From: an uncultured Nitrososphaerota archaeon
GTDB taxonomy: Archaea; Thermoproteota; Nitrososphaeria; Nitrososphaerales; CADDZS01
Assembly: GCA_963799845.1 (NCBI GenBank)
Contig: CAWCYI010000007.1
Coordinates: 128,001-192,000, forward strand
Length of the DNA stretch: 64,000 bases
Reading direction: 5' to 3'
A model generated the notes under the pieces. It was given only the letters and a program-made list of their open reading frames with translations, did no database searches and had not been told where the DNA came from. A program made the translations under genes and the position numbers. Position 1 is the stretch's first letter. Each line of letters starts with the position of its first letter. Below are positions 17,213 through 53,700 of the stretch, piece by piece.

Positions 17213-17348
17213 TGGGCCAGGCCGGATTTGAACCGACGACCCACACCGTGTAAGGGTATGACCGCAATCTTGCAAAAATTGCTGTTGTCCTAACCAGGTT
17301 GCCCGAATCTGAGAAGTAATTACTCGGAATCCCCTAGACGACTGGCCC
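17213..17348 (-). tRNA. tRNA-Val(TAC) with two introns: 15/16 (17299-17333, 35 nt) and 28/29 (17258-17283, 26 nt)
   Basis: Removing both inserts gives GGGCCAG TC GTCT AGCCTGGTTA GGAC A ACACC CTTACAC GGTGT GGGTC GTCGG TTCAAAT CCGGC CTGGCCC A with all four stems paired; anticodon TAC at 17252-17250; both junctions form BHB-like motifs. Confidence 0.92.
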
Positions 17349-51328: not shown

Positions 51329-52462
51329 ATGAGCACCCAGTTGTTGAATCTCGATAGATTCACCAAGGAGACGGCCCTTCGAAACGAGACTGATTTGATT
51401 GTAATACGACCTGAAGAGCCTTCTAATCCGGCCTATGGTCATGCTCCCTCAAATCGACCGATTATCGAATATTTGAAAAACGGATTTGTCGTACTGGACA
51501 AACCTCAGGGGCCCACCAGCCATGAAGTCGTAGCTTGGGTCCGAAAAATGCTTTCTCTGGAAAGAGCCGGCCATTCTGGCACACTTGACCCGATGGTTTC
51601 CGGTCTTTTGCCAATTGGATTGGGAAATGCCACGAAAGCGCTCTCGGTTTTACTGCTCGGCCCAAAGGAGTACATTTGTGTTGCGAGGATTCATGATTCA
51701 GTCCCCAAGGACCTTCTTTTTGGGGTAATTAGGCAATTCGTTGGACCAATCTATCAAAAGCCGCCACAGAGGTCATCGGTGAAAAGAGTGACTAGGACCC
51801 GAACAATTTACGAATTGGAAATATTGGAGCAGGTTGGAAATCTATTACTTTTGAGAATCCTCTGCGAGGCTGGAACCTACATTCGAAAACTTGTCTATGA
51901 TATAGGAGAGGTCATCACCGTCGGTGCGACAATGGTCGAACTTCGTAGAACTCGGGTGTGCCATCTGACCGAGGAGGATCTAGTGAGGCTGCACGACCTG
52001 CATGAGGCAAACGAGATTTTCAAAGAGTCAAAATCAGAATCGAGACTCCGCGAGCTGATCAAGCCTATCGAATTTGCGGTCTCGTTCCTGAAGCAGATCA
52101 GAATTAGAGACTCTGCGGTAGAGTCCATTTGTCAGGGCGCACAGCTCGCCATCCCCGGCATCGTTTCGATGTCGAAAGGAATCAAGAAGGGAGAGATTGT
52201 CAGGATAATGACGGGAAAGGGAGAGCTCGTGGCAATCGCTGAAGCCCAACTCGTTGGGGAAGATATCTTGAAAGAGCAGCATGGGCTCGCGACTGTCACG
52301 AAGAGAGTCACGATGAATACCGGAACCTACCCGAAGATGTGGAAATCGAAAGCGGAAGTTCTTGTCAGCGAAGGAATTTCCGAAGTCCTCCTCAAGGAGT
52401 CGATCCTAGATAGGCTCGAAAAAGACGAACAGGAAGAATTAGTGAATCGGAAAAAAAGATAG
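51329..52462 (+). CDS. cbf5: H/ACA pseudouridine synthase Cbf5 (TruB family, PUA domain)
   Basis: DKPQGPTSHEV, GHSGTLDP, KEY, YQKPP..S.VKR, CEAGTYIRKL, ELRRTR. Confidence 0.96.
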   Translation: MSTQLLNLDRFTKETALRNETDLIVIRPEEPSNPAYGHAPSNRPIIEYLKNGFVVLDKPQGPTSHEVVAWVRKMLSLERAGHSGTLDPMVSGLLPIGLGNATKALSVLLLGPKEYICVARIHDSVPKDLLFGVIRQFVGPIYQKPPQRSSVKRVTRTRTIYELEILEQVGNLLLLRILCEAGTYIRKLVYDIGEVITVGATMVELRRTRVCHLTEEDLVRLHDLHEANEIFKESKSESRLRELIKPIEFAVSFLKQIRIRDSAVESICQGAQLAIPGIVSMSKGIKKGEIVRIMTGKGELVAIAEAQLVGEDILKEQHGLATVTKRVTMNTGTYPKMWKSKAEVLVSEGISEVLLKESILDRLEKDEQEELVNRKKR

Positions 52463-52520: not shown

Positions 52521-52741
52521 GCCGGGGTCGCCTAGAGCTTCCAGTTAAGTCAGTTTTCGAACTAGAGGCGGGAATCCTGGTAGGGCGCAGCTTCTGACCG
52601 CGGGCTTCTCAAGAAGACCGTGAAGGATTTGCGTACGCCTGGAAAACCAAGGCCTTCCCAAGCGCGCTAACTTGGTGCGTCTTGCAAAACGGAAAGCCTG
52701 TGACCGCATTGGTCTCGTGGGTTCAAATCCCACCCCCGGCG
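52521..52741 (+). tRNA. tRNA-Ser(GGA) with three introns: 15/16 (52536-52575, 40 nt), 29/30 (52591-52636, 46 nt), 37/38 (52645-52694, 50 nt)
   Basis: Spliced: GCCGGGG TC GCCT AGCCTGGTA GGGC G CAGGC CT GGA AA GCCTG TGACCGCATTGGTC TC GTGGG TTCAAAT CCCAC CCCCGGC G. All stems pair, with a long variable arm and G73 typical of Ser; BHB-like junctions. Confidence 0.92.
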
Positions 52742-52780
52742 TTTTCCTTTTTCTCTGATTTTTTCATTTCTTTCTCATCT
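52742..52780 (+). terminator. Oligo-T (pyrimidine-rich) archaeal terminator after tRNA-Ser
   Basis: TTTTCCTTTTTCTCTGATTTTTTCATTTCTTTCTC immediately 3' of the tRNA. Confidence 0.6.
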
Positions 52781-53118: not shown

Positions 53119-53700
53119 CTAACCTTGCTGGCAGACAAAGCCGTAATGGTGTGGCCCCGGATTTAGGGCATAAACAATCACAAAACCATTTTCCCTGATA
53201 ATAAGCCGGGATTCATTTTCAGAAAGTCTCCTTTCGAGTGGAGGTCCCATATTCTCTGTTTCTCGTTTGTGCCAGTCGATGTCGACGATCCGGGCTGTCT
53301 GTTTCGCGATACGTCGTATCTCGTTGAAGAACGACTTCTTATCTTTCAAGTCGTGCAGAATATTTGCAAAAATGACAAGGTCTACGCTTTGATCCGGAAT
53401 ATCCGTGCTACTAACATCGGCTTCAATAATCCTAATTTTGGCGAGATTTTTTTCCAAGTTTGAACTCCCCAAGTTAGTCTTCAAATAACGCAGCATCACT
53501 GGATTATTGTCCACTGCGTAGAGCTGACCGAGACTTCCAATCTTCATCGCGAGTGGAATAGTGAAGAATCCAGGCCCGCAGGCGAGGTCTGCTGCGGACG
53601 AACCCTCAGCGATCCCTATTTGTTCGAGAATATCTTCGGGATTCTGCCACTCCTTCCGATCTTCCGCCATCAATAACTTGGCAAAATCATCGCTGTCCAA
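53119..53700 (-). CDS. Class I SAM-dependent methyltransferase
   Basis: ADLACGPGFF, YAVD, D.V...NILH, DW.K....GPP. Confidence 0.88.
   Translation of the reverse strand: MDSDDFAKLLMAEDRKEWQNPEDILEQIGIAEGSSAADLACGPGFFTIPLAMKIGSLGQLYAVDNNPVMLRYLKTNLGSSNLEKNLAKIRIIEADVSSTDIPDQSVDLVIFANILHDLKDKKSFFNEIRRIAKQTARIVDIDWHKRETENMGPPLERRLSENESRLIIRENGFVIVYALNPGPHHYGFVCQQG

Follow-up and report, generated by a model that had tools for sequence, protein, structure and literature searches.

A tRNA-Ser(GGA) gene in four exons from an intron-rich lineage of soil Nitrososphaerales

We describe a tRNA-Ser(GGA) gene, found in a 64,000-nucleotide stretch of an uncultured Nitrososphaerales genome (hereafter the window), in which 136 of 221 nt belong to three introns. 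We are confident that this is the single functional tRNA-Ser(GGA) gene of its host, and that its three bulge-helix-bulge introns would be cut out by the splicing endonuclease EndA and the exons joined by the ligase RtcB, with the intron at the canonical 37/38 site most likely leaving last. Multi-intron tRNAs, the stepwise removal of their introns and intron-rich tRNA sets have all been published already, and the gene is an ordinary member of this known class. The host lineage is unusually intron-rich, and within its own genome the gene is not exceptional.

Results

The gene occupies positions 52521-52741 on the forward strand, with all its parts on that strand, and in-silico splicing, the ARAGORN cloverleaf and the orthologs agree on a mature RNA of 85 nt, CCA not being encoded. 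Exon 1 (52521-52535, 15 nt), invariant in 4/4 same-genus sequences, supplies the 5′ strand of the acceptor stem, U8, C9, the 5′ strand of the D stem, A14 and G15, and is followed at site 15/16 by intron 1 (52536-52575, 40 nt), which has a relaxed junction motif. Exon 2 (52576-52590, 15 nt) resumes the D loop at C16 and continues through the 3′ strand of the D stem and G26 to positions 27-29, where intron 2 (52591-52636, 46 nt) is placed at site 29/30 with the help of a covariation count over 14 orthologs. Exon 3 is a micro-exon of 8 nt, GCCTGGAA (52637-52644), which spans positions 30-37, holds the anticodon GGA and is likewise invariant within the genus. After intron 3 (52645-52694, 50 nt), at the canonical 37/38 site, exon 4 (52695-52741, 47 nt) provides position 38, the 3′ strand of the anticodon stem, a variable arm of 16 nt, the T arm, the 3′ strand of the acceptor stem and G73. 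The preliminary description had already divided the gene into four exons and three introns, and its coordinates and sizes proved exact: ARAGORN calls the joined exons a tRNA-Ser(gga) whose acceptor stem has 7 bp and which also has D, anticodon and T arms, the long variable arm expected from exon 4 and G73; every stem is paired, with no mismatch.

The gene is intergenic, lying between open reading frames at 51329-52462 (forward strand) and 53119-53700 (reverse strand). Directly after G73 the sequence continues with a T-rich tract, TTTTCCTTTTTCTCTGATTTTTT (52742-52764, forward strand), which likely serves as an archaeal oligo-T terminator; no promoter was identified for the gene. A precursor of about 221 nt would presumably be transcribed from it. 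A split or permuted, trans-spliced tRNA gene was ruled out, the four exons being colinear within 221 nt, as were self-splicing group I and group II introns, given intron lengths of 40-50 nt and the lack of any Rfam family match in the window. Inspection of the introns by eye revealed no conserved C/D boxes of guide RNAs.

Could the exons be drawn differently? Other boundaries, or other removed pieces, would give another mature tRNA, and we consider such a map highly improbable. The solver that we used, a heuristic which starts from T-arm seeds and removes up to three junction-motif-like pieces by depth-first search, does return alternatives that score 39 against 40 for the proposed map. It is conservation, and not this difference of one point, that excludes them: the alternative exons sit in stretches that vary within the genus, whereas the proposed exons are invariant, and the same map was recovered independently in six orthologs and in two named public records. 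A spliced aligner also gave an equal-scoring alternative for introns 2 and 3 of the host, for which the values reported here are those of the intron-removing solver. The boundaries of intron 3 can be moved from 33/34 to 38/39 in the same-genus orthologs with listed registers (L002-L004), but each placement yields an identical mature RNA, and the ambiguity leaves the product unchanged; among the registers listed, the flanking exon helix is longest at 37/38, which also ties for the best central helix (3/4 pairs in L003).

In a DNA search with the Ser(GGA) gene, 40 of 41 genomes (40 relatives plus the host) gave a match, mostly via the 3′ exon. Within the genus, every exon column is invariant in the four sequences compared, while intron interiors vary both in length and in sequence, each intron ending in 6-10 conserved nt; between genomes whose exons are invariant, the introns are about 76-90% identical overall. 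The sole genome of the 41 without a match, a complete 2.8-Mb genome of another family (G026), nonetheless has 34 Rfam tRNA hits, and its Ser(GGA) 3′ exon may have diverged or been interrupted.

With the spliced aligner and ARAGORN together, 24 of 30 loci of relatives resolved to Ser(GGA), the six outside this tally being two at contig ends (L008, L025), two other or mis-solved isoacceptors (L010, L024), a Ser(GCT) gene (L021) and L030. None of the 24 recovered loci is intron-free: eight have three introns, nine have two and seven have one, which is then the canonical intron only. The same three sites as in the host (15/16, 29/30 and 37/38) are used in six genomes of its family, the host (G000), G003, G004, G002, G006 and G008; in the remaining three-intron loci 15/16 is replaced by 20/21 (L007) or by 5/6 (L014), and the pair 29/30 and 37/38 recurs in 5 of the 9 two-intron loci. 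When public genome contigs were scanned for the 29/30 layout, the matches listed were mostly chance, bacterial ones, with at least five useful archaeal loci. Among the matches listed, records named 'Nitrososphaerales archaeon' (L147) and 'archaeon' (L138) carry the same three-intron Ser(GGA) gene, and a 'Candidatus Nitrosocaldus' record (L139) has the 29/30 and 37/38 intron pair; these records put the clade in Nitrososphaerota. The archaeal locus L050 gave no solver solution.

As it stands unspliced, the locus receives no ARAGORN call and no match at gathering score from any of the Rfam models, as might be expected of a decaying pseudogene or tRNA-like relic. We find this reading barely credible, since the same tools miss most of the other tRNAs of the host too, the spliced cloverleaf is perfect, and the exons have stayed invariant while the introns changed. 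It is also the only gene with a GGA anticodon that we found. The preliminary description had named an intact Ser(GGA) gene elsewhere as grounds for doubting its interpretation, and no second locus in the host genome matches the mature RNA beyond the T arm; the anticodon GGA appears once among the 27 anticodons resolved in our census of the host genome. Scanning the whole genome for hairpins that would form an uninterrupted GGA anticodon arm returned 129 chance matches and was uninformative.

A bulge-helix-bulge motif has two 3-nt bulges four pairs apart, each cut between its second and third bases; our pair counts assume this standard geometry and cover the 15/16, 29/30 and 37/38 sites. The sequence contains all the junction strings quoted in the preliminary description. 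At 15/16 (GCCT AG^A ... GGGA AT^C, with the caret at the cut), the central helix has 3/4 pairs with a G10·A mismatch, the form is HBh′-like, and the intron carries an internal 5-bp helix (GCTTC/GAGGC). The 29/30 junction (GCGC AG^C ... GCGT AC^G) is hBH-like, with 4/4 pairs in its central helix, formed by G24-C27 with GCGT, and an additional 4-bp exon-exon helix between positions 20-23 and 31-34. At 37/38 (CTGG AA^A ... ACGG AA^A) the central helix again has 3/4 pairs, and the flanking exon helix is limited to 2 bp while intron 2 is present, becoming the full anticodon stem once intron 2 has been removed. The two central helices with only 3/4 pairs, at 15/16 and 37/38, each contain a G·A mismatch. 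The junctions of the gene are accordingly all of the bulge-helix-bulge type or of one of its recognised relaxed forms (hBH, HBh′, BHL).

The orthologs suggest that these helices are maintained. Over 14 orthologs the 29/30 motif is paired in 99.1% of 112 cells, a level that none of 500 shuffles reached (0/500) and that compares with 5-55% for slid controls. Within this helix the pair C25:G is swapped to G25:C in four sequences, which count as one or two events because they fall in two lineages, and the partner of G24 is C in seven sequences and U in seven; the compensatory support for the helix thus comes from a single pair of columns that changed in two lineages. Pairing of the intron 1 helix persists in orthologs through five different sequences (GCTTC/GAGGC, GCCC/GGGC, GCAT/GTGC, GCGCG/CGCGC and GCA/TGC). 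Judged from these alignments, the junction helices appear to be kept by covariation among relatives while the intron interiors drift.

The 29/30 motif occupies nucleotides 31-34 and the 37/38 motif nucleotides 31-35, and because they share nucleotides the two cannot both form in one molecule. Unconstrained minimum-energy folds of the precursor and of partly spliced forms show no textbook 3-nt bulges, and they bury the 5′ splice site of intron 2 within a helix; since they gave no junction motifs, we used forced-structure energies instead, imposing each motif in turn in ViennaRNA. Forcing the intron 1 motif costs 0.5-4.6 kcal/mol and the intron 2 motif 5.8-8.9 kcal/mol, and imposing both together is no costlier than imposing the latter alone. 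The intron 3 motif costs 18.8-23.1 kcal/mol as long as intron 2 is present, and 6.2-9.1 kcal/mol after its removal. These modelled energies support a sequence in which introns 1 and 2 would come out first, the RNA would refold and intron 3 would follow. The ordered splicing that the preliminary description had proposed looks reasonable, given that removal of the 29/30 intron lowers the modelled 37/38 cost from 19-23 to 6-9 kcal/mol.

It is also conceivable, if rather unlikely, that no order is obligatory, and that a broad-specificity enzyme cuts 37/38 while the precursor is still unspliced, recognising the 3-bp central helix with its 2-bp flank or a three-way junction with the anticodon stem formed around intron 2, so that introns leave in any order or intron 3 goes first. 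Enzymes of the (αβ)2 type are described, in passages of two papers, as accepting relaxed motifs that lack one flank (PMC4090602, PMC5829648), and the intron 2 motif costs about the same with and without intron 3 (8.2 vs 8.9 kcal/mol), so that on this side nothing bars the reverse order. The reading is opposed by the much higher cost of the 37/38 motif while intron 2 remains and the competition of the two motifs for nucleotides 31-35, which is the same reason that, according to part of its description, led tRNAscan-SE 2.0 to remove introns iteratively (PMC8450103). The same source, as far as its account of introns goes, has close introns taken out one after another (PMC8450103), and stepwise removal is in this sense already published. 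We therefore prefer an ordered pathway, in which the 15/16 and 29/30 motifs would form together in the primary transcript and 37/38 would most likely be cut after intron 2 has been lost and the RNA has refolded, because the 37/38 motif shares exon-3 nucleotides with 29/30 and needs the anticodon stem.

The host encodes the enzymes that such a pathway would require. Its genome contains two EndA paralogs, in the regions of C6:28787-29023 (186 aa) and C6:111288-111542 (232 aa), and each has the Pfam N-terminal and catalytic domains. The shorter, in our reading, retains Tyr, His and Lys at the places expected for the catalytic triad. Alpha subunits of A. pernix, S. tokodaii and P. aerophilum match it along its whole length (E 1e-37 to 1e-33), without a gap in the loop region and with K42 opposite A. 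pernix K44. That residue is the loop lysine tied to broad endonuclease specificity in a paper that also names the Tyr/His/Lys triad, in the sections that concern us (PMC5829648). The 232-aa paralog lacks the catalytic His in our reading, as would a structural beta subunit, which it resembles in this loss. The host is thus predicted to have an (αβ)2 endonuclease of the crenarchaeal type with the specific-loop lysine, and non-canonical introns and multi-intron tRNA genes have been tied to this enzyme type and its loop, in what parts of two papers report (PMC4090602, PMC5829648). This two-subunit enzyme would cut each of the three junctions, its type being one that tolerates relaxed motifs beyond the anticodon loop, and the exons would then be sealed by RtcB, for which the host has a gene (Pfam RtcB, 575 bits, in a 513-aa open frame).

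The window holds a second interrupted tRNA gene. Our intron-removing solver resolved tRNA-Val(TAC) on the reverse strand at 17213-17348, with one intron at 15/16 (17299-17333) and another at 28/29, equivalent to 29/30 (17258-17283), both also on that strand, in agreement with the earlier remark that both tRNAs of the window are multi-intron and have the 15/16 site in common. The ARAGORN call of a 'tRNA-Ala(tgc)' at 17213-17304 was rejected as a miscall, its 'anticodon arm' being a hairpin inside the second intron of tRNA-Val(TAC).

The same condition extends across the host genome. In its 4.6 Mb (86.7% complete), the Rfam tRNA model gave 12 hits, 11 of which span 90-141 nt and one of which is a 66-nt partial; none of the 12 is of intron-free size. 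In intron mode ARAGORN called 35 genes, three of them without an intron: the Ala miscall, one with poor stems and one tRNA-like sequence with an 8-nt anticodon loop. The last, at C8:78364-78439, is tRNA-like, free of introns and 76 nt long; its stems are perfect, it has an A1-U72 end, ARAGORN gives its anticodon as 'cttg', and it is the sole intron-free-sized tRNA-like call in the host. The one with poor stems, called as an intronless tRNA-Glu(ttc) at C6:39182-39258, has two acceptor mismatches and a T stem of G·T pairs only, and may represent a genuine Glu gene with an intron in its T arm that lies beyond the reach of the solver. At three further places (C4:648515, C6:845106 and C6:917882) we observed identical T-arm-like stretches, CGGAG TTCAAGT CTCTG with TCCATTA, that lack a matching 5′ acceptor strand and may be the tRNA-derived ends of a repeated or mobile element. 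A Pfam search for archaeal AmoA found no match in the host genome at its 86.7% completeness, and the control genomes also matched nowhere, which gives this negative little weight.

Applied genome-wide in strict mode, our heuristic census produced a cloverleaf for 26 of 140 T-arm-like seeds. All 26 anticodons were different and sensible, ARAGORN called all 26 solutions tRNAs after splicing, and some 95 seeds whose T loop or acceptor was not tRNA-like yielded zero solutions; the result is more than chance. A relaxed run on 22 further 3′ ends added a single credible gene, Ser(CGA), which scored 44 by the solver only; the remaining ends, low-scoring or without a solution, were left uncounted, and about 19 expected isoacceptors fall outside the census. 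The 27 resolved genes, with 27 different anticodons, contain 47 introns (about 1.7 per gene): 12 genes have one, 10 have two and five have three, and none is intron-free. Sites recur, with 15/16 used in 8/27 genes and 28-30/31 in 8/27. For Leu(CAG) the solver placed an 89-nt intron after position 1, a solution that we distrust, as ARAGORN finds the same gene with one intron.

The genes with three introns are Ser(GGA), Ser(TGA), Pro(GGG), Arg(CCT) and, weakly, Arg(TCG). Two of the others also have an anticodon micro-exon, of 8 nt in tRNA-Ser(TGA) (C4:146765-146862) and 7 nt in tRNA-Arg(CCT) (C6:390666-390755), and in both the exons are 98-100% identical in relatives. By position, exon identity in relatives is 85-87/87 for Ser(TGA), 76/76 for Pro(GGG) and 75/75 for Arg(CCT), while the predicted introns of these three genes reach 47-86% and almost all length differences are intronic. 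No copies of the three Ser(GGA) introns were found elsewhere in the host genome, and its eight 15/16 introns are not alike.

Among relatives, we counted intron-free-sized Rfam tRNA hits (69-76 nt) by hand from their coordinates. In complete genomes of other families these make up 26 of 42 hits (G023), 20 of 32 (G019) and 17 of 34 (G026), as against 6 of 20 in the third genus of the host's family (G011) and 0 of 12 in its second genus (G008), from which it follows that the expansion is specific to part of one family. The 15/16 intron of Ser(GGA) has a similar range. A pattern for it matched 7 of 401 genomes of the order, all in the host's family: the host and 5/6 others of its genus, 1/1 of the second genus and 0/5 of the third. 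It matched 0/388 genomes in the other 19 families, a count to be read as not found rather than absent, because the pattern tolerates no deviation at the exon ends and limits the intron to 19-49 nt. The lineage-wide intron expansion suggested in the preliminary description is thus supported by the census, the Rfam counts and the 15/16 pattern, in the narrower form of an expansion in part of one Nitrososphaerales family.

Discussion

Passages on multi-intron tRNA genes place most of them in Pyrobaculum and Thermofilum, with three introns at most (PMC3218864, PMC4033280; Sugahara et al. 2007, 2008 cited there), and the earlier view that triple-intron tRNAs are known mainly from Thermoproteales fits these accounts. 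It leaves out others. In a portion of PMC8450103, Crenarchaeota and Thaumarchaeota are both said to have tRNAs with multiple non-canonical introns, some genes with two or three, and for Thaumarchaeota 107 non-canonical introns were counted and a junction model of their own was built. In soil Asgard archaea (Atabeyarchaeia and Freyarchaeia), according to an extract of the report, 92-95% of tRNA genes contain introns, over half of them several, with many at non-canonical sites (bioRxiv 10.1101/2023.11.21.568159). Our literature search on Nitrososphaeria or Nitrososphaerales and tRNA introns returned no paper specific to the host clade.

The host combines features of several of these systems. Like Thermoproteales genes, as portrayed in the passages cited, its tRNA genes have up to three short introns at canonical and non-canonical sites with relaxed junctions, many genes are affected, and the endonuclease, here predicted, is of the (αβ)2 type. 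Unlike the Thermoproteales, which are hyperthermophilic Crenarchaeota, it is a member of the Nitrososphaerales known from soil metagenomes, a different phylum-level lineage. Similar introns in different tRNAs suggested transposition in Thermoproteales, in the relevant parts of two papers (PMC4090602, PMC4033280), whereas the host's Ser(GGA) introns are without look-alikes in the genome and its 15/16 introns are dissimilar. It shares its phylum and its multiple non-canonical introns with the Thaumarchaeota, as these are treated in part of PMC8450103, yet complete genomes of other families of its order keep many intron-free-sized tRNA hits. With the soil Asgard archaea, as far as the extract describes them, it has in common an intron-rich tRNA set, several introns per gene, non-canonical sites and a soil habitat, but the phyla are unrelated and the host figures come from a heuristic census of one 87%-complete genome. 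The pre-tRNA-Glu of Methanopyrus kandleri, in the sections of PMC5829648 that deal with it, similarly has a relaxed (HBh′) D-arm intron beside a further intron in the same tRNA. The M. kandleri enzyme, as those sections have it, is without the specific loop and cuts such introns poorly (PMC5829648), whereas the host alpha subunit aligns through the loop and keeps its lysine.

Taken together, we lean, if only somewhat, towards the view that two genera of one small soil Nitrososphaerales family have undergone a tRNA-intron proliferation of their own, with no intron-free gene, with micro-exons that force stepwise splicing and with no sign of copying. Its scale would be that of Thermoproteales and soil Asgard archaea, and the recurrent 15/16 and 28-30/31 sites would be what creates the anticodon exons of 7-8 nt.

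The genomic context is more useful than the gene, which adds one case of a known archaeal layout. With ARAGORN and the Rfam tRNA model, no more than about a dozen tRNA genes come to light in the host and its near relatives, some of them miscalled, where other families give 32-42 hits. Genome-quality standards use a threshold of 18 tRNAs, and by any standard that counts tRNAs such genomes would consequently be rated lower; analyses of codon usage or decoding would likewise be wrong. The lineage offers a mesophilic system, apart from the Thermoproteales, in which to ask how non-canonical introns spread without obvious copying, and it is also suited to asking whether splicing has to follow an order when junction motifs compete around an 8-nt exon.
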